Shown: piece by piece, positions 11,384-41,456 of the stretch
How positions within the stretch are numbered: the first letter of the stretch is position 1
How the letters are laid out: every line of letters starts with the position of its first letter
Assembly (NCBI GenBank): GCA_900540945.1
Contig: UQHQ01000005.1
Coordinates: forward strand, 29,749-93,748
Direction of reading: 5' to 3'
Length of the DNA: 64,000 bases
Source of the DNA: an uncultured Collinsella sp.
GTDB lineage: Bacteria; Actinomycetota; Coriobacteriia; Coriobacteriales; Coriobacteriaceae
The notes under the pieces: generated by a model
What the model saw: the letters and a program-made list of their open reading frames with translations, nothing else
What the model was told of the DNA's origin: nothing
Database searches by the model: none
Program-made: the position numbers and the translations under genes

Positions 11384-14200
11384 TTATGCCTCACCTCCTT
11401 TGGAGTGCTTGCCAAGCGCGGTGGTATCTCCATCATTTGTGGCTGTGCTGTCGCTGCCCTGAGATTTATGGTGCGAACCGATATGCGGCAAGCGGCCCGT
11501 GGACTGATCGCCGCCCTTGGCGCCGCGCTCGCTGGCGTTGAGGCCAAACATGTGGCGGGCGGCAGGAATGGCGGCCGTGTGTTCGCGCATCTCGCGACGC
11601 AGGTCCTCATCCGAAAGCGCCGAGATGCGCATCTGGGTATTGAGGCTCGCTCGGATATATTCGATATTGATAAGCCAGCCGCAGATAGCAATAACCGAGA
11701 TGATCCAAATGACAAGCAGGATGATCTTGCCGTTATTGTCGATATCGAGAACCGTCGACAAGACAAAGAGCAGGACCTGAACGCCCACCACGGCGGCAAA
11801 ACCGCCCTTGATGTAGTACGGGTAGCGATGTTCAAAGGCGACCGCATGATCGAGCAGTTCGCGACGGTACGAATCGGAATCGAGCATGACGCGCATGGCC
11901 GTGCGCAGCGAGTAGCGCTGGCGCGGCAGGTCGTTGGACTCGCAAATCATCATACCGGTCGTGGAGAGCTGTTTATCAAAGAGCAGGTTGAGGTTGAGCA
12001 GCAGCGGACGCAGCTGCAAGCCAATAAAGAGTGCGATGGCAAGGAACACGCCCAAGATGCACAGGTTGAACAGGTAGTTGAACGAGTACATGCCGCCGAC
12101 CGTCTCGCGCAGCAGATTGATGCCGTAGGTAAAGGGCAGCAGCGGGTGCAGCCACTGGAAGAAGCCGGGCATCATCTCGATGGGGTACATGCCCGACGAA
12201 CCCGGGATCTGCACGATGACGAGAATGACGCCGATAGCCTTGCCGATATGCTTAAACGTGGTGGACAGCGCATAGATGATATTGACGTAGGTGAACGAAA
12301 TGGCGATGCCGCCCAGCACGAACAGCAGCGGGCTGACGCACTGCACGCCAATCACCAGATCGCCTACCGTAACGATGATGGCCTGCAACGCGCCCAGGAT
12401 CACCATGAGCAACCAGCGGCCAAAGTAGCCTTGGCGCGCCGTAAAGCTGCCAACACCTTCACGGTCGACCTCGAGCTTGTAAATGGCGATGAGCACATAG
12501 CCGCCCACCCAAAGCGCCAGATTGGTGTAGAAGGGAGCGATGCCCGAGCCAAAGCTCTTGACCGGATAGATTGACTTGGACGTCAACTCAACCGGAGACG
12601 CCATGAAATCTGCCACGTCATTGACATCGACGCCCATCAGATCGGCCAGCTCGCCCATGGACTCGGAGGTCTGCAGCGCCGCGATGTCATTGGCGGCGGT
12701 TGCAAGCTTGTCCTGGACCTTGGCAAGCGAGGAATCGGTCTGGGACAGCGTGGTCTTGGCCTGGCCGAGCGTAGCGCTAAGCTGCGCCAACGTGCCGCGC
12801 GCATTTGCAAGTGTAGGTGTCATACCCGAGACGATACCGGTCAGGTCGCCCGAAACGGCAGCAAAAGAGTCGAGCGCGCTCGAGGCCTTCGGCAGCGCGT
12901 TTTGACCCAGGTCCGTCTGGGCCTGGCCAAGGTTGGTCGCACCGGTCTGAATTGCGTTATTGATAGCGTCGCTGGCACCCGAGACAGCCGCGGCGTCATT
13001 CGCCATGGCGCTCGACTGCGCAGACAGACCGTCCTTGATGCTCTGCAACTTCTCGTTCTGCTCACGGAGCGTATTGATGGTCGATACAATGCGCGCGTCA
13101 ATTTCCTCGGAACCTGTCGACGTGTCATTGGCGAGAATCTCCAAGTGCCCGATAACGGCCTTATTGTGGTCGATCGTCGCTTGGAGAGACTCGAGCGAGT
13201 TGTCGATACGGGTGGTCGTAGATGTGACCGTGCCCGTCAGCTTGCCGATGGCAGCGTTCGCGGAGGCCGACGTCTTGGTGAGCGCAAGGCTGCCTTCCGA
13301 GAGCGCCTTGGAGAGCGAGGCGATAGAGTTGCCCGCCGTGGTGCGAGCTTCACCCAGCAGGTCGTTGCCCTGAGAGATCGCTTGCGTCAGTGACGGCGCC
13401 TGACCCTGCATGCCGGCAAGTGCCGCATCAGCCGAGGCGATAGCGCCACTCGTCTTATCGATGGCGGCATTCATGTCGCCAATCGAATCGCGCACCTCGC
13501 CCAAGGTATCGGATGCCTCGGAGACAGAACTTGCCAACGAATCCTGAGTCTGGGTTGCCTTGTCCTTTAAATCGACTCCGGCATCCTTGGCAATGCTGGC
13601 AACGGTCTCGCCCACCGTGGAGACAAATTCCGAGTTGATCTGCTCCTCGATGGTGCTTGCACCGGTGTCGGTAACCTTGGGCGCAATAGCGCTCTTCTTC
13701 TCATTGACGTAGTACGTAAGCTTGGGCTGATGGTAGTTACCGTCGAGCATCGAAACCAGGTTATCCGAGAAGTTCTTGGGGATTACGATGGCCGCATAGT
13801 ACTCACCGCTCTCGACGCCCTCCTTGGCATCGGACGCCGAATCGACGAAGGTCCAGCCCAGCTGATCGTTCTCCTTGAGCTGATCGACAACCTGGTCGCC
13901 CGCGTTGAGCTCGCCCACCAAGTCGTTTTGGGTGCCCCGATCGTTGTTGGCGATGGCAATCTTGATACCCTGGGTGTTTCCGTACGGATCCCAGTTGGCC
14001 ACGATGTTGTACCAGGCATACAGCGAGGGAATAACGCACACGCCAAGGGTAACCACCAAGGCGACGGGGCTCACAAGCAGTCGCTTAATGTCGCGCTTAA
14101 ATATCGCAAAGGACACCTTTGCATTGGATAGTTTGCTGCCGAGACTCACGCTTGGACCATCCATCCTGTCGTTAAATCGAATCGTACTATCGACAACCAT
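11384..14200 (-). CDS. YhgE/Pip domain membrane protein (paralog 2, longer). The start is uncertain: candidates are TTG at 14233 (track M1), ATG at 14200 and ATG at about 14164.
   Basis: FAIFKRDIKRLL...WDPYGNTQGIKIAIANND, same architecture as paralog 1, translationally coupled to it. Confidence 0.8.
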   Translation of the reverse strand: MVVDSTIRFNDRMDGPSVSLGSKLSNAKVSFAIFKRDIKRLLVSPVALVVTLGVCVIPSLYAWYNIVANWDPYGNTQGIKIAIANNDRGTQNDLVGELNAGDQVVDQLKENDQLGWTFVDSASDAKEGVESGEYYAAIVIPKNFSDNLVSMLDGNYHQPKLTYYVNEKKSAIAPKVTDTGASTIEEQINSEFVSTVGETVASIAKDAGVDLKDKATQTQDSLASSVSEASDTLGEVRDSIGDMNAAIDKTSGAIASADAALAGMQGQAPSLTQAISQGNDLLGEARTTAGNSIASLSKALSEGSLALTKTSASANAAIGKLTGTVTSTTTRIDNSLESLQATIDHNKAVIGHLEILANDTSTGSEEIDARIVSTINTLREQNEKLQSIKDGLSAQSSAMANDAAAVSGASDAINNAIQTGATNLGQAQTDLGQNALPKASSALDSFAAVSGDLTGIVSGMTPTLANARGTLAQLSATLGQAKTTLSQTDSSLAKVQDKLATAANDIAALQTSESMGELADLMGVDVNDVADFMASPVELTSKSIYPVKSFGSGIAPFYTNLALWVGGYVLIAIYKLEVDREGVGSFTARQGYFGRWLLMVILGALQAIIVTVGDLVIGVQCVSPLLFVLGGIAISFTYVNIIYALSTTFKHIGKAIGVILVIVQIPGSSGMYPIEMMPGFFQWLHPLLPFTYGINLLRETVGGMYSFNYLFNLCILGVFLAIALFIGLQLRPLLLNLNLLFDKQLSTTGMMICESNDLPRQRYSLRTAMRVMLDSDSYRRELLDHAVAFEHRYPYYIKGGFAAVVGVQVLLFVLSTVLDIDNNGKIILLVIWIISVIAICGWLINIEYIRASLNTQMRISALSDEDLRREMREHTAAIPAARHMFGLNASERGAKGGDQSTGRLPHIGSHHKSQGSDSTATNDGDTTALGKHSKGGEA

Positions 14201-14444
14201 TGTACGTAGGCGCTTTAGCGTCTCAGAGCACAATGGTATTGAGTTTTGCGGGTAGCAATATACTACGAAGACAAATTAACGTACAGTTGTACAGTATCTT
14301 TAATTTCAGCATGTCACAAAACCACAACCCGCACAAATTAGCAATTCAAATAGCATCGGGGACGTTCTTAAACGACTAGTCAAACAAAAACGCCCCCAAT
14401 GACTACTTAGGACCACGAAAGCGTCGCTGGTTGAGCATAAGTCA

Positions 14445-14587
14445 GCGAAAACGCCCCTAAGCGAGCAAGGTGACGCGAAAGAGGAGGGAAGCGTACTTCG
14501 GTACGCGACCGACGATTGAACGTCAGATTGCCGCTTAGGGGCGTTTGCAGCGTCGAGCTGTTACGCGGTTTGGTAAAACCGCGTAAC
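14445..14587. promoter_or_regulatory. Palindromic region between the htpG 3' end and the yhgE2 5' end: 15-bp inverted repeat arms (14447-14461 / 14533-14547) plus a perfect 12-bp-stem hairpin (14560-14587)
   Basis: gaaaacgcccctaagcg ... cgcttaggggcgttt; gttacgcggttt-ggta-aaaccgcgtaac. A related third copy caaaaacgcccccaatg lies at about 14383. Confidence 0.5.
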
Positions 14588-14594
14588 TACCTAA

Positions 14595-16619
14595 CTACAT
14601 CAAGTTGCAGATAGCCGCCGCGAAGGCTACGGGGTCCTCGGGGAGGATGCCCTCGACCAGCAGAGCCTGGTCATAGAGCAGACCGGAGTACTGCTTGATC
14701 TTGTCGGTGTCGCCCGCCTTCTGGGCAGCGACAAGCTTGTCAAAGACCGGGTGCTTGGCGTTGAGCTCGAGCACGCGCTGGCTCTTGGGCATGCCGTCGG
14801 GCGCGCCCTCGGGTCCCTTCTGGAGCACCTTCTCCATCTCAAGCGAAAGCGGACCCTCGGTGGTGATGCAAGCGGGGGCATCGGTCAGGCGCGCGGAGAC
14901 GGCAACCTTCTCGACCTTGTCACCGAGCGCCTCCTTCATAGCGCTGAAGAGGTCCTCGTTTTCCTTGGTGGCGTCCTCGGCCTCCTTCTTCTCGTCCTCG
15001 GTCGCCAGGTCAAGATCACCGGTCGCGACGTTCTTGAGCTCCAGATGACGATCCTCGACCTCGGGCTCGGCACCGTCGGCCACAGCCTTCTCGGCAGCCT
15101 CGCGGGCAGCATCGTCCTCGTAGATCTTGGGCATATCGGCGGCAACGTACTCACGCATAGCCTGGAACGTGAACTCATCCACATCCTGCGTCAGCAGCAG
15201 CACGTCATAGCCGCGGTCGAGCACGCCCTTTACCACGGGCATCTTGGCCAAGCGCTCACGCGAGTCGCCGGCGGCGTAGTAGATGGCCTTCTGATCCTCA
15301 GGCATGCCCTTGGCATACTCGGCCAGGGTAATCATCTTCTGTTCCTTGGCAGACCAGAACAGCAACAGGTCGGCGAGCTCATCGGCCTTCATGCCATAGC
15401 TCGAGTAGATGCCGTACTTAAGACCGCGGCCAAAGTTCTCAAAGAACTTCTCATAGGCCTCGCGGTCGTTGTCACGCATATCCTCAAGGTCGGCGGTAAT
15501 CTTCTTTTCCACACGCTTGGCGATGGCCTTGAGCTGACGGTTCTGCTGCAGCGTCTCGCGCGAGATGTTGAGCGACACGTCGGCGGAATCCACGACGCCG
15601 CGGACAAAGTTGTAGTAGTCGGGCAGCAGGTCGTCGCACTTCTCCATGATCAGGACGTTGGAGCTGTAGAGCGCCAGACCCTTCTCGTAGTCCTTGCTGT
15701 ACAGATCGAACGGCGCGCGTCCCGGCACAAACAGCAGGGCGTCATACTCGAGCGTGCCCTCGGCGTGGAAGCTGATGGTGCGCGCAGGATCGTCAAAGTC
15801 GTGGAACGTGGACTTGTAGAACTCGTCGTAGTCCTTCTGCTCGACATCGGAGCTGCGCTTCTTCCAGATCGGTGTCATGGAATTGACGGTCTCGAGCTCC
15901 TGGTAGTCCTCGTACTCGGGCTTGTAATCGTCGCCGGCGTCCTCGGGCTTGGGTTTCTGGCGGCTCTTGGACACCATCATCTGGATCGGGTAGCGCACAT
16001 AGTTACTGTACTGCTGAATCAGGCTCTTGAGACCCCACTCGGTCAGGAAGCGATCGTAGGTCTCGGCCTCGCCGTCGGCGTCGAGCTTCTCGTTCTCACG
16101 CAGCGTCAGGATGACATCGGTGCCGTGCTCGGCGCGCTCGCCATCTTCGATGGTGTAACCCTCAAGACCATCAGACTCCCACACGTGAGCGGTGTCCTCG
16201 CCATAGGCGCGGCTGACGACCTTCACGTGGCTGGCGACCATAAAAGCCGAGTAGAAGCCCACGCCAAACTGGCCGATGATGTCGACATCCGAACCCTGCT
16301 GCTCGGCGTTCTCGGTCTTAAACTCCTCGGAGCCGGAATGGGCGATGGTGCCCAGATTGCGCTCGAGCTCCTCGGCGGTCATGCCAATGCCGTTATCCGA
16401 GATGGTAATGGTGCGGGCGTCTTTATCAAAGGAGACGCGAATGGCCAGGTCGCCCTGGTCGATCTTGACGCTCGGATCCTGCAGGCTCTTAAAGTTGAGC
16501 TTGTCGACGGCGTCGCTCGCGTTAGAGATAAGCTCGCGCAGGAAGATTTCCTTATTGGTGTAGATGGAGTTGATCATGAGGTCGAGCAGTTTTTTGCTCT
16601 CGGTCTTAAATTGACGCAT
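14595..16619 (-). CDS. htpG: Molecular chaperone HtpG (Hsp90)
   Basis: 674 aa. N-terminal KEIFLRELISNASDA, GHKL ATPase, C-terminal charged linker. Confidence 0.95.
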   Translation of the reverse strand: MRQFKTESKKLLDLMINSIYTNKEIFLRELISNASDAVDKLNFKSLQDPSVKIDQGDLAIRVSFDKDARTITISDNGIGMTAEELERNLGTIAHSGSEEFKTENAEQQGSDVDIIGQFGVGFYSAFMVASHVKVVSRAYGEDTAHVWESDGLEGYTIEDGERAEHGTDVILTLRENEKLDADGEAETYDRFLTEWGLKSLIQQYSNYVRYPIQMMVSKSRQKPKPEDAGDDYKPEYEDYQELETVNSMTPIWKKRSSDVEQKDYDEFYKSTFHDFDDPARTISFHAEGTLEYDALLFVPGRAPFDLYSKDYEKGLALYSSNVLIMEKCDDLLPDYYNFVRGVVDSADVSLNISRETLQQNRQLKAIAKRVEKKITADLEDMRDNDREAYEKFFENFGRGLKYGIYSSYGMKADELADLLLFWSAKEQKMITLAEYAKGMPEDQKAIYYAAGDSRERLAKMPVVKGVLDRGYDVLLLTQDVDEFTFQAMREYVAADMPKIYEDDAAREAAEKAVADGAEPEVEDRHLELKNVATGDLDLATEDEKKEAEDATKENEDLFSAMKEALGDKVEKVAVSARLTDAPACITTEGPLSLEMEKVLQKGPEGAPDGMPKSQRVLELNAKHPVFDKLVAAQKAGDTDKIKQYSGLLYDQALLVEGILPEDPVAFAAAICNLM

Positions 16620-29446: not shown

Positions 29447-29523
29447 AAGTTCAATTGGTGCGGCGTATAGGATTCGAACCTATGACGTTCTGATTCGTAG
29501 TCAGACCCTCTATCCAGCTGAGG
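29447..29523 (-). tRNA. tRNA-Arg (anticodon ACG), copy 1, CCA encoded
   Basis: GCGGCGT-TA-CCTC-AGCTGGATA-GAGG-G-TCTGA-CTACGAA-TCAGA-ACGTC-ATAGG-TTCGAAT-CCTAT-ACGCCGC-A-CCA. Confidence 0.92.
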
Positions 29524-29535
29524 TAACGCCGCGAC

Positions 29536-29564
29536 TTGTTGATTATTATGCACATGGACTGAAT
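29536..29564 (-). promoter_or_regulatory. Sigma-70-like promoter for tRNA-Arg copy 1 (TTGACC-N17-CATAAT on the minus strand)
   Basis: Revcomp reads cTTGACCattattcagtccatgtgCATAATaat, then about 7 nt to the tRNA 5' end. Confidence 0.6.
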
Positions 29565-29681
29565 AATGGTCAAGCGTTTTTTCAAAAAAAGTTATCGAAT
29601 TTGATTTTTACTCATTTGGAGCACTTGGCGCGATCCTCGACGTATCGCGATATAAGAAAAGCCCCCGTTGCCGGGAGCTTC

Positions 29682-29830
29682 AAGATCAATTGGTGCGGCG
29701 TATAGGATTCCGCGCATCCGCTGCGCGAATCCGCGCCGGCTTCGCCCGCCTGCCGGCGTGCTCGCCCGCTCGCTGAAAACGCTCCGCGTTTTCTTGACGC
29801 TCGCGCCTCGACCGAGGTTCGAATCTCCGC
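29682..29830. repeat. Chimeric pseudo-tRNA unit B: 19-nt tRNA-Arg 3' fragment (29682-29700) fused to an about 130-nt GC-rich structured element. On the plus strand it ends in T-arm-like gaggttcgaatctcc + gcaatgct-c-cca.
   Basis: About 90% identical to unit A. The central hairpin gaaaacgc-tcc-gcgttttc (unit A: cggacgc-tcc-gcgtccg) shows compensatory changes. Confidence 0.7.
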
Positions 29831-29871
29831 AATGCTCCCATATAAGAAAAGCCCCCGTTGCCGGGAGCTTT
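29830..29871 (-). terminator. Terminator hairpin + T-run after tRNA-Arg copy 2
   Basis: aagctcccggcaacgggggctt + ttcttatat on minus. Confidence 0.6.
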
Positions 29872-29948
29872 AAAGTCAATTGGTGCGGCGTATAGGATTC
29901 GAACCTATGACGTTCTGATTCGTAGTCAGACCCTCTATCCAGCTGAGG
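29872..29948 (-). tRNA. tRNA-Arg (ACG), copy 2, identical to copy 1
   Basis: Identical 77-nt sequence including CCA. Confidence 0.92.
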
Positions 29949-29960
29949 TAACGCCGCAAC

Positions 29961-29989
29961 GCACGGATTATTATGCACGCGAGCCCCCG
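29961..29989 (-). promoter_or_regulatory. Promoter for tRNA-Arg copy 2 (TTGACC-N17-CATAAT)
   Basis: Revcomp reads gcTTGACCcatcgggggctcgcgtgCATAATaatccgtgcgt-GCGGCG. Confidence 0.6.
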
Positions 29990-30036
29990 ATGGGTCAAGC
30001 GACAATTTGAAAAAATTTTACGGAGTGGTGATTAGG

Positions 30037-30065
30037 CTGTTCACACCCCGACCGAGGTTCGAATC
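30037..30065. repeat. Short partial copy of the element end with T-loop mimic
   Basis: ccccgaccgaggttcgaatccatgcatgg. Confidence 0.5.
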
Positions 30066-30069
30066 CATG

Positions 30070-30111
30070 CATGGTTTCCAAAAAAGAAAAGCCCCCGTTG
30101 CCGGAGGCTTC
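30070..30111 (-). terminator. Terminator hairpin + T-run after tRNA-Arg copy 3
   Basis: aagcctccggcaacgggggctt + ttcttttttgg on minus. Confidence 0.6.
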
Positions 30112-30188
30112 AAGTTCGATTGGTGCGGCGTATAGGATTCGAACCTATGACGTTCTGATTCGTAGTCAGACCCTCTATCCAGCTGAGG
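30112..30188 (-). tRNA. tRNA-Arg (ACG), copy 3, identical
   Basis: Identical 77-nt sequence. Upstream TTGACT...TTTATA promoter-like sequence at 30196-30235. Confidence 0.92.
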
Positions 30189-30271
30189 TAACGCCGCAGC
30201 GCAAGTCATATAAAACCACTTTAGTTAGTTGGAGTCAAGCACAATCTCAAACTTTTTTGAGAATATGTTCC

Positions 30272-33391: not shown

Positions 33392-33862
33392 CTATTTGTG
33401 ATACGGCTCGCCACGGCTGATCTTGCAGGCGCGGTAGATTTGCTCCAGCAGCACCACGCGCGCCAAGTTGTGCGGCAAGGTAATACGTCCAAAGCTGAGC
33501 ATCTCGTCGGCTCGTGTGCGCACGTCATCGCTCACGCCGTCCGATCCACCAATCACAAAGGCGATGTCGCTGTTACCACGCAGCATAAGATCGTCGAGCC
33601 GCGCCGAAAGCTCCTCGCTCGAGCGCTCTTTGCCCTCAATGGCAAGCAGGATCACATGCGCTCGAGGCGGCAGGGCTGCGAGAATCGCCGCACCCTCCTT
33701 GTCGCGTGCGGCATCCACGCCGCCCGCCTTAGCCGGGTCGATATCGGCCACCTCGCGGATATCCACCTTGGCATAGGCACCTAGGCGCTTGGTGTACTCA
33801 GCGCACGCGTCCTTCCAAAAGCGCTCCTTGAGCTTACCGACGCAAACGACGGTGTATTTCAC
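33392..33862 (-). CDS. rlmH: 23S rRNA (pseudouridine1915-N3)-methyltransferase RlmH (SPOUT)
   Basis: 156 aa. MKYTVVCVGKLKERF... C-terminal knot region LPHNLARVVLLEQIYRA. Confidence 0.9.
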   Translation of the reverse strand: MKYTVVCVGKLKERFWKDACAEYTKRLGAYAKVDIREVADIDPAKAGGVDAARDKEGAAILAALPPRAHVILLAIEGKERSSEELSARLDDLMLRGNSDIAFVIGGSDGVSDDVRTRADEMLSFGRITLPHNLARVVLLEQIYRACKISRGEPYHK

Positions 33863-33868
33863 GCGCGT

Positions 33869-34810
33869 CTACTCCTTCGAATCGTTTTGAACTTTGCTGG
33901 CGGTCAGCATCTGCTCGAACATCGAGGCCGACTGCGAGAAATCGCTCGGCAGTACGACCGTCGATGTTTTACCCGTGCGAGCGAACTCTGTCATCATCTC
34001 GGACCACTGCGTAAACATGAACAGCTGGTTGGCCTCGTCGTTACCGACACCCGTCTCCTGGATGATCTCGAGCGAATCCTTGATGCCCAGCGCGATGGCC
34101 TTGCGCTGGTTGGCGATGCCTTCGCCCGCCTTTTCCATCGCCTCGGCCTCGGCGGTCGCCTCGGTGACGCGCTTGATGCGGTCGGCCTCGGCGAGCTCCT
34201 GCGCAGCAGCGCGCTTTCGCTGGGCAGCATTGATGTCGTTCATGGAGTTCTCGACCTCGGTCGGCAGCGCGATCTTGGTGATGAGTGTCGACACGAGGGT
34301 AAAGCCGTAGGCAGCCATCTGCTCGGACACGGTGGCATTAACGTCCTTGGCGATGTCATCCTTCTTGGCAAAGACCTCATCGAGCGTATAGACAGGGATG
34401 GAAGAGCGCAGGGCGTCGGTGATGAAATCACGCATCTGGTCGACGGGCTCCTGCAGCATGTAGTAGCTCTTGTAGATGCCCGAATCTGCCGGGCCGGCGC
34501 CCATGTCATAGCTCACGTGGTACTGAGCAGAGACCTCAAGGCCGATGGTCACGTTGTCCTGGGTCTTAACGTCGATGCCAAAACCGTTTTTCATGGTGCG
34601 CAGACTCACCGTGGCGGCCTTGCGGTCGATCACGGGCACCTTCATGTGGAAGCCCGCGTTGACGATGCGGTTAAACTTGCCCAGACGCTCGATGATCACG
34701 GCATGCTGCTGTTCAACGACATAGCAGGCGTTGGGGAGCAGCAGCAACAAAATGATGATGGGAAGTAGAAAGCTCGTAAGAGCAGCGATAATACCGGACA
34801 ACAGCATGGT
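33869..34810 (-). CDS. SPFH/band-7 (stomatin/prohibitin-like) membrane protein. Likely start at about 34810.
   Basis: N-terminal TM, SPFH core VIIERLGKFNRIVNAGFHMKVPVIDR, C-terminal coiled coil. Confidence 0.8.
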   Translation of the reverse strand, partial: TMLLSGIIAALTSFLLPIIILLLLLPNACYVVEQQHAVIIERLGKFNRIVNAGFHMKVPVIDRKAATVSLRTMKNGFGIDVKTQDNVTIGLEVSAQYHVSYDMGAGPADSGIYKSYYMLQEPVDQMRDFITDALRSSIPVYTLDEVFAKKDDIAKDVNATVSEQMAAYGFTLVSTLITKIALPTEVENSMNDINAAQRKRAAAQELAEADRIKRVTEATAEAEAMEKAGEGIANQRKAIALGIKDSLEIIQETGVGNDEANQLFMFTQWSEMMTEFARTGKTSTVVLPSDFSQSASMFEQMLTASKVQNDSKE

Positions 34811-34883
34811 CTCTCCTCTGATAGGCACACGTTGGCACTAGGATACCCATCTCAGACCCTCACACGATCCCGACGAGAGGAGC

Positions 34884-35098
34884 CGTGGACAAAAAAGTCC
34901 AAATATGAGTACTGCTACCAGTTTAGTAACAGCGTTTTAAAGACCAAAACGCACTGTTGGACCAAGATTCCTTTCAAATTGACTCAGTTCAGCTCAAGGC
35001 AGTGTTAAGTTAGCAAACATTTGTTGCGTAAATAGTGCAATGATCACCTTTGAAAATGTGATTCATTTAGTGACAGTACTCATATTTGACATTTTTTG
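34884..35098. mobile_element. MITE-like element: about 215-bp AT-rich segment bounded by 24-bp terminal inverted repeats
   Basis: TIRs caaaaaagtccaaatatgagtactg / cagtactcatatttgacattttttg (1 mismatch). The interior is AT-rich with nested inverted repeats and no ORF. Confidence 0.55.
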
Positions 35099-35148
35099 CC
35101 CCACAGGAAGCTTCGCTATACGAGGACCCTATGTCACATCTGTCAATT

Positions 35149-35240
35149 CGCCTGCCAGCGGACTCGCCAGCTCGCTAAAAACGCTCCGCGTTTTCTTTGC
35201 GCTCGCTCCTTCACAGGTTCAAGTCCCCGTGATGGGCCCA
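35149..35240. repeat. tRNA-linked GC-rich structured element (Leu-locus copy), ending on plus in the T-arm mimic caggttcaagtcc + gtgatgggccca
   Basis: cgcctgccagcggactcgccagctcgctaaaaacgctccgcgttttctttgcgctcgc... aligns with the Arg-locus copies over about 85 nt. The T-loop TTCAAGT matches the tRNA-Leu T-loop rather than the Arg one. Confidence 0.65.
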
Positions 35241-35280
35241 TAACAAAAAAGCTCCCATTGCTGGGAGCTCTTTCAATCAA
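35241..35280 (-). terminator. Terminator hairpin + T-run after tRNA-Leu
   Basis: On minus: CCA-ttgattgaaa-gagctcccagcaatgggagctc-ttttttgttat. Confidence 0.65.
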
Positions 35281-35367
35281 TGGTGCGGGCGAAAGGACTT
35301 GAACCTTCATGGGGTTGCCCCCATACGGACCTGAACCGTACGCGTCTGCCAATTCCGCCACGCCCGC
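35281..35367 (-). tRNA. tRNA-Leu (anticodon CAG), type II, CCA encoded
   Basis: GCGGGCG acceptor, anticodon loop TTCAGGT, variable arm ATGGGGGCAACCCCATG, T-arm GAAGGTTCAAGTCCTTT, CGCCCGC-A-CCA. Confidence 0.9.
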
Positions 35368-35410
35368 GTGCAGGAATTAGAATAACGGAGCGCTACCGCG
35401 AACGCAAGAA

Positions 35411-36328
35411 CTATTTTTGAAAAAGTTTGCAGGCATTTTCCCAAGCTGCTCGCGCGATTGCCTCAGCATCCTCGCCGGTACGATCGACACGGTCGTTGAC
35501 CAGCGTGTTTGCCGTGATAGAAATCATTGCCGGCTCGCACTCAAGACCACGAATGGGCTCCGGTGCCATATACGGGCAATCCGTCTCGAACAAAATGCGA
35601 TCGAGCGGGGTCGCCGCAAATGCCTCGCGCACGTCGTCGTTGCGCTTAAAGGTGGCCGCGCCGCCATAGGCGATATAGCAGCCCAAACCCACAAAGCGCT
35701 CCATCGTAGCTCGATCCTCGCCAAAGCAGTGCAGCACGCAACCGGCCTGAGGCACGCCTACCTCGCGCAGCACGTTGTACGCATCAACGTGCGAAGTGCG
35801 CTCCCCATCCGAGTCCTCGTGCCGCAGGTGCAGCTCCACCGGCACATTGCGGCGCACGGCAACTTCGAGCTGACGCGCCATGCAATCAATCTGCACACTG
35901 TGGGGCGCCGGCGCGATGTCGTCGTCGTAATCCATGTGATAGTCCAGACCGATCTCGCCGATGCCAACGCACAAAGGGTCATCAAGCGCAGCAACAACCT
36001 GTGCGTGAATGTCGTCGGTATAATCCGGCGCGCCATAGGGGTGAACGCCAACGAGATACTTGATCTGCGGAATATCCCGCATCGGCAGAATTTCGCGCAC
36101 GAGCCAGTCGCTATAGTCCGTCACGCTGCGCTTGTCGGCGATGGGGTCGAGCATCGTCACCAACAGATCGACGCCCGCGGCTTTGGCGCGCACGAGCGTT
36201 TCGGGCACTTCTTTGCCCCAAAACGAAAGCAGATGCGCATGCGTGTCGGCAAGCGGTGCCAAGGGCACGGGGCAGGCAACAGTCTTCTTTTTCTTGGTAA
36301 ACGTCACGCGTTCGGCATTAAGCGTCAT
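35411..36328 (-). CDS. tatD: TatD family metal-dependent hydrolase/DNase
   Basis: DTHAHL, GEIGLDY and FETDCPYMAP motifs. Confidence 0.9.
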   Translation of the reverse strand: MTLNAERVTFTKKKKTVACPVPLAPLADTHAHLLSFWGKEVPETLVRAKAAGVDLLVTMLDPIADKRSVTDYSDWLVREILPMRDIPQIKYLVGVHPYGAPDYTDDIHAQVVAALDDPLCVGIGEIGLDYHMDYDDDIAPAPHSVQIDCMARQLEVAVRRNVPVELHLRHEDSDGERTSHVDAYNVLREVGVPQAGCVLHCFGEDRATMERFVGLGCYIAYGGAATFKRNDDVREAFAATPLDRILFETDCPYMAPEPIRGLECEPAMISITANTLVNDRVDRTGEDAEAIARAAWENACKLFQK

Positions 36329-37178
36329 GGATTAGCTCCTGGGCCAGGCGGACAAAGTCAGCAACATCAAGCGTCTCGGCGCGCGTGGTGGGTGAGATAC
36401 CGCAAGCCTCAAAGGCGGCATCGAGCACGTCCTTGGCAAAGCCGTTGGCGCTCATGGAATTGCGGATGGTCTTGCGACGCTGAGCAAATGCGGCGTCAAT
36501 CACGCGGGCCACAAACTCGCGATCGAGTCCTTCGGGCACCACGCCGTCAACACGGTCGATACGCACGACGGCCGAGTCCACGTGCGGTGCCGGCATAAAG
36601 CAACGCGGCGGCACCTCAAAGCGACCCGTCACCTGCGCATACAGGCCGAGCTTTGCCGTATAGCCGCCATAGGTCTTATTGCCCGGCACTGCGGCAATGC
36701 GATCGGCAACCTCCTTTTGAACCATGACGACGGCGCGCTTGAGCGCGGGCATCGTCTGGAAGAACTGCAGGATGATCGTCGCCGCCACGTTATAGGGCAG
36801 GTTCGCGACAAATACCGTCGGCTCACCGCCCGCAACCTGCTCAATCTGCTCCGGCGTCACCCTGAGCGCGTCGCCCATGATAAAGCGGAAGTTGGCGTAG
36901 TCAGCGGCATGGGCATCGAGCACCGGCTCGAGCTCGGGGTCGGCCTCGATCGACGTGACGCACGCCGCCTCCTGCAGCAGCGCAAGCGTGAGCGTACCAA
37001 CGCCCGGACCGACCTCGAGCACGCGCTCATCGCCCGCAAGCTCGGAAAGCTCGCAAATGCGCTCAATTACATGGTTGTCGATCAGGAAGTTCTGGCCCAG
37101 GCGATGCTTGGTCGCAAGGCCAAACTCCTCCAGCAGCTCCCTTGTTGCCGTGGGGTTTGCCAAAGGCGAAGTTGTCAT
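36318..37178 (-). CDS. rsmA: 16S rRNA (adenine1518/1519-N6)-dimethyltransferase RsmA/KsgA
   Basis: KHRLGQNFLID, VLEVGPGVGTLT SAM motif. Confidence 0.92.
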   Translation of the reverse strand: MTTSPLANPTATRELLEEFGLATKHRLGQNFLIDNHVIERICELSELAGDERVLEVGPGVGTLTLALLQEAACVTSIEADPELEPVLDAHAADYANFRFIMGDALRVTPEQIEQVAGGEPTVFVANLPYNVAATIILQFFQTMPALKRAVVMVQKEVADRIAAVPGNKTYGGYTAKLGLYAQVTGRFEVPPRCFMPAPHVDSAVVRIDRVDGVVPEGLDREFVARVIDAAFAQRRKTIRNSMSANGFAKDVLDAAFEACGISPTTRAETLDVADFVRLAQELIHDA

Positions 37179-40904: not shown

Positions 40905-41197
40905 ACTGCCCCCTTCGGATCGTGCAGGCCAAACCTGCATCGTATTGCATAGGAAAAGTATCGTTTTGAGTATACCCGCGCGTGCGGACAGACGACCGAA
41001 CGGTCTGTAAAGTGGCGCAAAAGCGGGAGGAATGTCTGGGGCGAGCGGGGTCAAGATGACGTACCGAGATGCGCATACACGCCGAGGGCAGGCGCCGGAA
41101 AGCGCATTCCATTCTTTCGCTCAATAATGGGATGCGCTTTCCGCGGGTCCACATAAAAGAAAAGGACCCCTTTGCAGAGGTCCTAGTCAATTCAAGG

Positions 41198-41335
41198 TGG
41201 CGGGGAAGGGAATCGCGTCCGCGCGCTGCGCGGACGGACCGCTGCGGCGCCTGCGCGCCTTGCGAGCTACGCTGGAAAACGCTTGCGCGTTTCCTCAGCT
41301 CCGCGCCCTCACGGGGTTCGATTCCGTGCATGGTC
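41198..41335. repeat. Chimeric pseudo-tRNA unit (Phe locus): 18-nt tRNA-Phe 3' fragment (41198-41215) fused to an about 120-nt GC-rich structured element ending in the T-arm mimic cacggggttcgattccgtg
   Basis: Same architecture as the Arg units. The central hairpin ggaaaacgc-ttgc-gcgtttcc is homologous to the Arg/Leu hairpin with a different loop. The T-loop TTCGATT matches tRNA-Phe. Confidence 0.65.
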
Positions 41336-41383
41336 CACATAAAAGAAAAGGACCCCTTTGCAGAGGTCCTAGTCAATTCAAGG
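41336..41383 (-). terminator. Terminator hairpin + T-run after tRNA-Phe (a second copy after the pseudo-unit lies at 41150-41197)
   Basis: ggacctctgcaaaggggtcc + ttttcttttatgtgg on minus. Confidence 0.6.

Positions 41384-41456
<73 letters not shown>

Follow-up and report, generated by a model that had tools for sequence, protein, structure and literature searches.

A low-copy family of AT-rich palindromic intergenic elements in Collinsella with conserved arms and stepwise spacer lengths

Introduction

Correia elements of Neisseria, RUP elements of S. pneumoniae and ERIC/IRU elements of enterobacteria are bacterial MITEs, and such elements occur in tens to hundreds of copies. REP units, the building blocks of the REP/BIME/REPIN group, are 20-40 nt long and are present in hundreds of copies. 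In the invertible promoter switches, like the Bacteroides invertons, E. coli fimS and C. difficile cwpV/flgB, inverted repeats bracket 150-300 bp. A different kind of constraint is known from araO2-araI, the gal repressosome and IS50/Tn5 synapsis, where two protein-bound sites less than 250 bp apart show a periodicity of 10.5-11 bp; Goryshin, Kil and Reznikoff reportedly described in 1994 such length and phasing effects on the synapsis of short transposons for IS50/Tn5.

The non-coding genome of Collinsella, which is both prevalent and hyper-diverse in the human gut, is little known. We studied an AT-rich segment beside a tRNA-Leu gene of an uncultured Collinsella sp.; the window is the whole 64-kb stretch of contig UQHQ01000005.1 that was analysed, and positions refer to it unless another record is named. 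It is a single member of a family of AT-rich palindromic intergenic elements that are about 250 bp long and specific to Collinsella. The family is apparently new to description, low in copy number and confined to this gut genus; a full-text search of the literature on Collinsella MITEs and invertible repeats gave nothing relevant.

Structure of the element in the window

The preliminary description of this DNA had noticed a MITE-like element with near-perfect 24-bp terminal inverted repeats at 34884-35098, next to tRNA-Leu. The inverted pair is there: the 25-nt arm CAAAAAAGTCCAAATATGAGTACTG at 34890-34914 (+) has its inverted partner at 35074-35098, with three mismatches grouped at arm positions 8-10. 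It is near-perfect as described, but the arms are 25 nt long and bound a segment of 209 bp, which begins at 34890, so that the former start was 6 nt too low. In 100 dinucleotide-preserving shuffles of the window no arm pair matched (chance expectation 0.00) and the arms recur at more than 120 loci, which rules out a chance palindrome. Ungapped extension of the window arms gave 45-nt arms with 73% complementarity, and the inverted repeat fades outward gradually and has no sharp end.

The GC content was 0.36 across 34900-35099 against 0.55-0.66 around it (flanks about 60%), so the segment is AT-rich as had been claimed. Four nested palindromes, also claimed before, were found between 34912 and 35067 (Table 1), and the segment folded as single-stranded DNA at -34.6 kcal/mol (z = -4.35 against shuffles). 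The segment had been described as having no ORF; the ORFs that overlap it (58 and 67 aa) are mechanical ones only. A small protein was rejected because the conserved ATG in the arm opens frames of only 11 and 6 codons in the window copy. Origin as a tRNA or tmRNA fragment was rejected because ARAGORN and Rfam find tRNA-Leu alone; the tRNA-like T-arm close by is part of the neighbouring GC-rich module and not of the element. No second copy was found within the 64-kb window.

From the per-position conservation in 98 unique arm pairs and from palindrome pair counts, the arm is a composite of about 50 nt: (C)NGTGG, N, CAAAAAA, NNN, CAAATATGAGTACTG, and then the palindrome CTGYYAC-N7-GTRRCAG. The parts CAAATATGAGTACTG, CAAAAAA and GTGG were 91-100% conserved in both arms, while the inner palindrome was well kept at the A-end and degenerate at the B-end. 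In the window copy the A-end lies toward the SPFH gene.

Table 1. Features of the element in the window and of its surroundings
Feature	Position	Strand	Remarks
SPFH/Band_7 gene	33869..34807	-	ATG 76 nt away from the outer end of the A-arm
A-arm	34883..34932		Faces SPFH gene; outer CCGTGG 34883-34888, CAAAAAA 34890-34896, variable GTC
A-arm, inner part	34900-34914; 34912-34932		Family-invariant CAAATATGAGTACTG; palindrome CTGCTAC-N7-GTAACAG
AT-rich variable core	34933..35055		Hairpin GCGTTTT/AAAACGC 34932-34952
Core, central palindrome	35010-35031		TTAGCAAACA-TT-TGTTGCGTAA
Core, inner hairpin	35039-35067		Begins in the core
B-arm	35056..35107		Faces tRNA-Leu; degenerate inner palindrome, CAGTACTCATATTTG 35074-35088, variable ACA
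B-arm, outer part	35092-35098; 35099-35107		TTTTTTG; CCCCACAGG
B-arm extension	35108..35147		About 40 nt beyond the B-arm; moves together with the element (filled vs empty alleles)
Truncated GC-rich tRNA-linked module	35148..35243	+	tRNA-like T-arm GGTTCAAGTCC; ends GGGCCCA
Intrinsic terminator hairpin of tRNA-Leu	35246..35273	-	T-tract tail TTTTTTGTTATGGGCC
tRNA-Leu(CAG)	35281..35367	-	ARAGORN; Rfam tRNA 50.6 bits
TatD	35411-36328	-	

The element could be read as a structured RNA gene or a cis-acting RNA, in which the arms would pair as a long closing stem, with functional hairpins or a terminator in the core. The strong fold agrees with this, and the outer arm positions -12, -19 and -20 covary, agreeing between the two arms of an element at 0.58-0.63 against 0.31-0.42 expected. 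Compensatory changes preserve an internal hairpin of 11 pairs in locus type (3,4): six sequences have UA and four have CG at pair 131:157, and six have CG and four have UA at pair 132:156. A conserved T-rich tract follows it on one strand. However, a stem requires complementarity and not one invariant sequence at all loci, and the variable NNN positions of the two arms showed no excess agreement. The two variable pairs of the arm palindrome show both T:G and C:A combinations, so there is no strand preference, unlike in an RNA hairpin, and the helical-turn length steps described below have no RNA rationale. Rfam 15 gave tRNA alone at E <= 1 in 33500-36500 and no element match in 12 related loci at gathering thresholds. 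A sigma-70-type promoter was found neither in the window copy nor at a fixed position across the family; a promoter in the arms was rejected, as an outward TTGGCA-N17-TATAAC-like arrangement is present at some loci only and often faces a gene end. On this evidence a structured RNA is improbable. The locus-specific core hairpins suggest some selected secondary structure, either RNA or cruciform DNA; in the window lineage there is a short hairpin just inside the A-arm, the sequence of which differs between species.

Distribution and copy number of the family

The pattern CAAAAAANNNCAAATATGAGTACTG matched six IMG/VR contigs, and a looser arm pattern matched at least 120 genome stretches. Among the matches listed, all belonged to Collinsella/Coriobacteriaceae except two contigs, which are in bins labelled Methanobrevibacter smithii and Alloprevotella sp. 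We extracted 107 complete elements. Their cores form about 15 clusters which are not alignable with one another, and each cluster is bound to its own pair of flanks; the arms thus bound elements at no less than 13 distinct chromosomal loci of Collinsella, a dispersed family such as the check proposed in the preliminary description predicted. The loci are orthologous across many GTDB species, and among the matches listed at least four genomes had two different loci. Relatives of the window element are mostly from C. aerofaciens-like Collinsella. The window core shares about 70% identity with its orthologues in other species (L050, L073) and is unalignable with the cores at other loci. Within the family, related cores were found at four different loci. 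No near-identical pair of copies at different loci was found, so there is no sign of recent movement.

The neighbours of the loci are ordinary housekeeping genes with no shared functional theme, and a search for a linked gene among neighbouring unknown proteins with Pfam and NCBIfam gave no clue. About half of the loci sit where two genes converge, often 30-50 nt beyond a terminator, and 6 of the about 15 locus types are beside tRNA genes (Leu, Val, Glu, Gln) and duplicated 3'-end modules. In the viral contigs a complete element is present on the host side of the endolysin end of a prophage. No match was obtained in phage records, and the sole match in the plasmid collection is a C. aerofaciens stretch, unannotated at the match.

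Copy number was low. Beyond the elements that define the loci, the sampled 0.96 Mb of Collinsella DNA contained no additional arm (up to nine mismatches in 34 nt), and the density was one copy in 450 kb, with none extra in about 0.85 Mb. In NZ_OY725717.1, a 0.9-Mb C. aerofaciens replicon of which 450 kb were scanned, there was one element, which is split by an IS256 copy, and a second element is located at 720 kb. BLAST against the whole record hit five places, equal to about two or three elements because each arm may match either strand; with half of the record scanned, this count is an estimate. The two conserved inverted units, hairpin-capable and with a variable spacer, which define REP/REPIN elements are present in the family, but not their copy number of tens to hundreds per genome.

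NZ_OY725717.1 is given in PLSDB/RefSeq as 'plasmid 6' of C. aerofaciens TSDC17.2-1.1. It is evidently a piece of chromosome and carries genes for ribosomal proteins, recA, dnaE, rho, ftsK and aminoacyl-tRNA synthetases.

Some loci showed further occupants. The spot of locus type (22,21) is variable with alternative occupants: NZ_OY725717.1 has a yafQ/relB toxin-antitoxin pair at 305257-305867, whereas L130 and L134 have the element and IS110. In locus type (9,5), raiA RNA lies 175 nt from the element (L036 4150-4410). The prophage next to the element in L014 and L015 carries an RT-2 RNA and a reverse transcriptase of PHROG 1423 (L014 7827-8050; L015 7784-9022), which together resemble a diversity-generating retroelement.

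Conservation of the arms and length of the spacer

Between paralogous loci (flanks not compared) the arms were 79% identical, while the cores were 51% identical, against 49% for shuffled cores. In all orthologue pairs the identities were 93% for arms, 82% for cores and 83-85% for flanks, and in those pairs whose cores were less than 80% identical they were 90%, 69% and 76%, respectively. In the collapsed remnants L024 and L067, where the arms alone are left, the arms have decayed. Judged from these comparisons, the conservation of arms in place at orthologous loci would point to host selection rather than to selfish spread. With arms kept at orthologous positions in many species and cores that decay between them, the elements behave unlike a passively decaying MITE.

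The core-to-core lengths were 177 (1 element), 186 (1), 187 (36), 188 (18), 197 (9), 198 (38) and 199 (4), and no measured element had a length of 189-196. The best-fitting period was 10.5-11 bp (R = 0.96). In neutral AT-rich DNA small indels are expected to be the commonest change, but between close orthologues they were absent; these were separated by single independent indels of 9-12 nt (L130 vs L134, L126, L095). The length steps together with the absence of small indels mean that the distance between the arms is limited to whole helical turns. It points to a spacing constraint which acts on DNA, with both arms engaged over a bent spacer, and not on the RNA level.

The same data might be explained by a host-owned regulatory or architectural site, in which a Collinsella DNA-binding protein on two inverted composite operators would loop about 170 bp of bent AT-rich DNA in the manner of gal or ara and so control or insulate transcription nearby, past mobility being incidental. 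Such a site would account for arms that are kept in place above core and flanks, for lengths strictly quantised by about 10.5 bp, like those of loops that proteins hold together, for palindromic sub-sites CTGYYAC-N7-GTRRCAG that vary by transitions on both strands and not strand-specifically, and for the central palindrome in the core; the window copy is also suitably placed, 76 nt upstream of the SPFH start codon. But at the half of the loci which are between convergent gene ends there is no gene start to control, the neighbour genes have no common theme, and no promoter is conserved at a fixed position. Dispersal of the same 50-bp arms to at least 13 loci would still need a mechanism, and 8 of 11 conspecific strains can do without the element. 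We consider a site of this kind somewhat unlikely, though it is the main rival of the reading that we prefer.

Alleles of the tRNA-Leu/SPFH locus

All neighbours are on the minus strand, in the order MetG, RsmA, TatD, tRNA-Leu(CAG), the element, SPFH/Band_7, RlmH and ProC. The SPFH protein is also encoded by many human-gut contigs and by GCA_008679405.1. The TatD-SPFH spacer was compared between the window and ten conspecific contigs. It is 247 nt in L003, with tRNA-Leu and its terminator only, and 436 nt in seven contigs which have an additional GC-rich module of 189 nt that repeats the final 18 nt of tRNA-Leu and the terminator. In the window, L005 and L006 it is 603 nt and contains a truncated module and the AT-rich element, which is missing from the other eight contigs. 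Compared with the L083-type allele, about 100 nt have been deleted, and this has fused the truncated module to the element. In other Collinsella species the same locus has the element without module (L050) or with the full module (L073, L083); the window allele is therefore the form with module and element, minus about 100 nt. It is an old allele common to some strains and not a recent insertion.

Comparison of filled L050 with empty L003 showed about 271 nt extra, which are the element plus about 45 nt outside the B-arm. This extra DNA is bounded not by the inverted repeat but by an imperfect direct repeat, CTTTTTTG..ACGGG(N)CC, one unit of which is the tail of the tRNA terminator and the other the outer A-arm end; the tail TTTTTTGTTATGGGCC resembles that outer end. 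The B-arm extension is homologous in the window, L050 and L083, and is missing from L003. From the additional 45 nt and the direct-repeat bounds, the inserted unit does not stop at the inverted repeats. A clean empty site that differs exactly by the element was accordingly not found between L003 and L050, the window allele being further rearranged, and for the other locus types none was found in the window and 450 kb of NZ_OY725717.1. Upstream of the SPFH gene, alleles with and without the element have just the promoter-proximal 44 nt next to the ATG in common.

These alleles bear on the possibility that the element is a scar of an integrative element or a prophage attachment region, that is, attachment-arm DNA left over from integration beside tRNA genes. 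The direct repeat around the filled allele includes the terminator tail of the tRNA; 6 of the about 15 locus types adjoin tRNA genes and duplicated 3'-end modules; the viral contigs place the element where the endolysin end of a prophage meets host DNA; and a size of about 250 bp, AT-richness and phasing recall attP of the lambda type. On the other hand, the element is complete on the host side of the prophage junction and is not split by prophages, at more than half of the loci neither a tRNA nor a module nor a phage is close by, no integrase is adjacent, and 50-nt inverted-repeat arms are unlike known attP anatomy. An attachment scar is thus quite unlikely.

The GC-rich tRNA-linked modules were themselves found at several places. 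One is at 41186-41330 (-), downstream of tRNA-Phe (41382-41456), the partial copy downstream of tRNA-Leu is that of Table 1, and others are in L001, L014, L034, L011 and further contigs. A module is composed of an inverted partial copy of the T-arm of the host tRNA, a conserved core GGAGCTGAGGAAACGCGCAAGCGTTTTCCAGCG and a GC-rich stretch, and ends with the final 18-19 nt of the tRNA and its terminator, duplicated in direct orientation. Modules are present or absent among conspecific strains and sometimes in tandem; the tRNA genes concerned are those for Leu, Phe, Val, Glu and Gln. They had no Rfam match. Integration scars are one possible origin, and a mini-element with tRNA genes as its target is another.

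Mobility and orientation of the element

Of the usual marks of a transposable element, neither a target-site duplication at the loci inspected nor a cognate transposase in the DNA scanned was found. No consistent direct repeat flanked any of about 20 loci. No transposase or recombinase bracketed by such arms was found in about 0.96 Mb of sampled loci and 0.45 Mb of the C. aerofaciens replicon, and the IS21, IS30, IS256, IS1249, IS3, IS200 and IS110 copies in these 1.4 Mb have ends unrelated to the arms. Also no RAYT (Y1 transposase) gene flanked by arms was present in the sampled DNA.

Three insertion sequences close to elements were considered as the cognate one and rejected. The IS200-type Y1 gene of L114 (5830-6600) is a secondary insertion into one core with its own hairpin ends, and orthologous copies elsewhere do not have it. 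The IS256 copies in L025, L031, L089, L124 and NZ_OY725717.1 are likewise secondary insertions with their own ends. In L130, about 280 nt separate the element from an unrelated IS110.

IS256 was inside or within about 35 nt of the element in these five genomes (L025 about 860-930; L124 about 7230; L089 about 3397; L031 about 2060; NZ_OY725717.1 338964-340470, L148). Its ends are GGTAGCGCGCAGAGATGTGGTGTAAGAG and ...CTCTTACACCACGTCTGCGCGCGCGACC, and in NZ_OY725717.1 it is flanked by an 8-bp duplication, TAATGGAT, in the loop of an internal hairpin. The AT-rich elements appear to be preferred targets of IS256.

An inverton, in which a dedicated recombinase flips the core between the arms and so switches a promoter or terminator, would have the inverted repeats around 160-170 bp, the arms common to all loci and the locus-specific cores that we see; phasing is also expected for synapsis over such a short distance, and one core bears an orientation-dependent hairpin like a terminator. 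At the aminotransferase | tRNA-Val locus the core is found in both orientations across species: two lineages have cores that are homologous as reverse complements, while an unusual variant of the outer arm stays with the flank on the tRNA side. The two orientation classes are about 40% diverged, and this indicates a single old inversion by recombination inside the arms and no ongoing switching. The orientation of the core relative to the flanks was constant in every member of every locus lineage (about 100 assemblies). In metagenome contigs the predicted inverted junction of the window was seen 0 times against 4 for the normal junction, a weak test with small numbers. With no linked recombinase gene, many loci between convergent genes, no consensus promoter in the window copy and none at a conserved position in the family, a functional inverton is highly improbable.

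Other features in the window

The GC skew changes its sign at about 14000-16000, from slightly positive values up to about 15 kb to negative ones beyond, and the same locus in L004 is at 1.138 Mb of a 2.336-Mb contig, so the window may be near the replication terminus. A Ter-like site of the terminus, prompted by this skew switch about 20 kb from the element, appears unlikely, since normal replication forks would be stopped by opposed pairs of sites at no less than 13 loci. Another intergenic repeat of about 200 nt (TTAGTTACGCGGTTTTACCAAACCGCGTAAC...) is at 14389-14589 and in L089 at 2780-2981, with 92.6% identity, and it sits downstream of unrelated genes. At 29456-30197, in a region of reduced GC, the minus strand carries tRNA-Arg(ACG) three times in tandem.

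Possible origin and function

How much of the original MITE assignment survives can now be said. It is partly supported: the outward look, the dispersed family and the presence or absence among strains agree with it, but target-site duplication, a clean empty site and a transposase with matching ends in about 1.4 Mb are missing and the copy number is low. Neither the low number of copies nor arms that are conserved in place would follow from it. The segment may or may not be a large regulatory cruciform, the other suggestion made for it.

The best explanation, which we hold tentatively, is an old non-autonomous element like a MITE or REPIN, whose arms would be paired sites for a trans-acting protein, synapsed over a bent spacer, and which is now retained. 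The family may formerly have spread as non-autonomous mobile DNA. Each 50-bp arm would be recognised, as a composite site, by a sequence-specific protein, possibly of transposase or recombinase type or a derivative of one, whose gene lies elsewhere in the genome. The two occupied arms would meet across the bendable AT-rich spacer, and because of this proposed synapsis the spacer could change its length by whole helical turns only. The copies seem now to be old, few and kept in place, so the complex of arms and protein probably still serves the cell or the element. Candidate roles are insulating or modulating transcription at gene ends, or a recombination site. While family membership, arm anatomy, arm conservation in place, quantised length, low copy number, lack of target-site duplication, strain presence/absence and one ancient inversion are observations, we infer protein binding, synapsis and the way in which the family dispersed.

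Another, unlikely course of events is that a dedicated Collinsella protein on the arms loops about 170 bp of curved AT-rich DNA, and that this architectural cassette was seeded at a few gene ends and tRNA-proximal sites by recombination without duplication and then kept by selection. It might act on transcription, as an insulator or a roadblock, or might provide a landing pad; clusters of IS256 and prophage ends are found at the elements.

For our preferred reading, an old element retained with its paired arms, the invariant arms and the helical-turn spacing, both unusual and directly testable, imply a sequence-specific protein and a defined protein-DNA architecture. If the arms were ordinary decayed transposon ends, the family would be a minor annotation. 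The elements also mark variable intergenic spots that gather IS256 copies, prophage ends and tRNA-linked modules, which is of use in strain typing and for studying the plasticity of Collinsella genomes.

Comparison with known systems

The Collinsella element shares with the invertible promoter switches the inverted repeats at a distance of this order, a repeat common to several loci in one genome, and a short synapse which is expected to need bending. It differs from them in having no orientation polymorphism within lineages, no linked recombinase and no conserved promoter, and many of its copies are between convergent genes.

It is like the MITEs (Correia, RUP, ERIC/IRU) in that it is small, has terminal inverted repeats but no ORF, and is intergenic, dispersed and present or absent among strains. 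Unlike MITEs, it has no target-site duplication, about 1.4 Mb of Collinsella DNA gave no matching IS, it has few copies per genome, its arms of about 50 nt are kept in place while the cores have diverged to random level, its length varies in steps of about 10.5 bp, and the inserted DNA passes one of the repeats.

With IS50/Tn5 synapsis and the ara and gal loops, the likeness lies in the periodicity of the distance between two sites. This is an analogy of mechanism only, which explains the length rule and not the membership of a family, and the Collinsella protein is putative.

Compared with REP/BIME/REPIN elements, the Collinsella arms are longer than REP units, the spacer is about 100 nt and copies are few; with respect to RAYT, no similar gene flanked by the arms was seen in the sampled DNA, and the sole Y1 transposase found was an ordinary IS200, that of L114. 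At the same time the two groups have in common two conserved inverted blocks around a less conserved spacer, an extragenic position, often at the 3' ends of genes, and long vertical persistence at orthologous positions. Within each arm there is also an imperfect palindrome, which fits recognition by a trans-acting protein.
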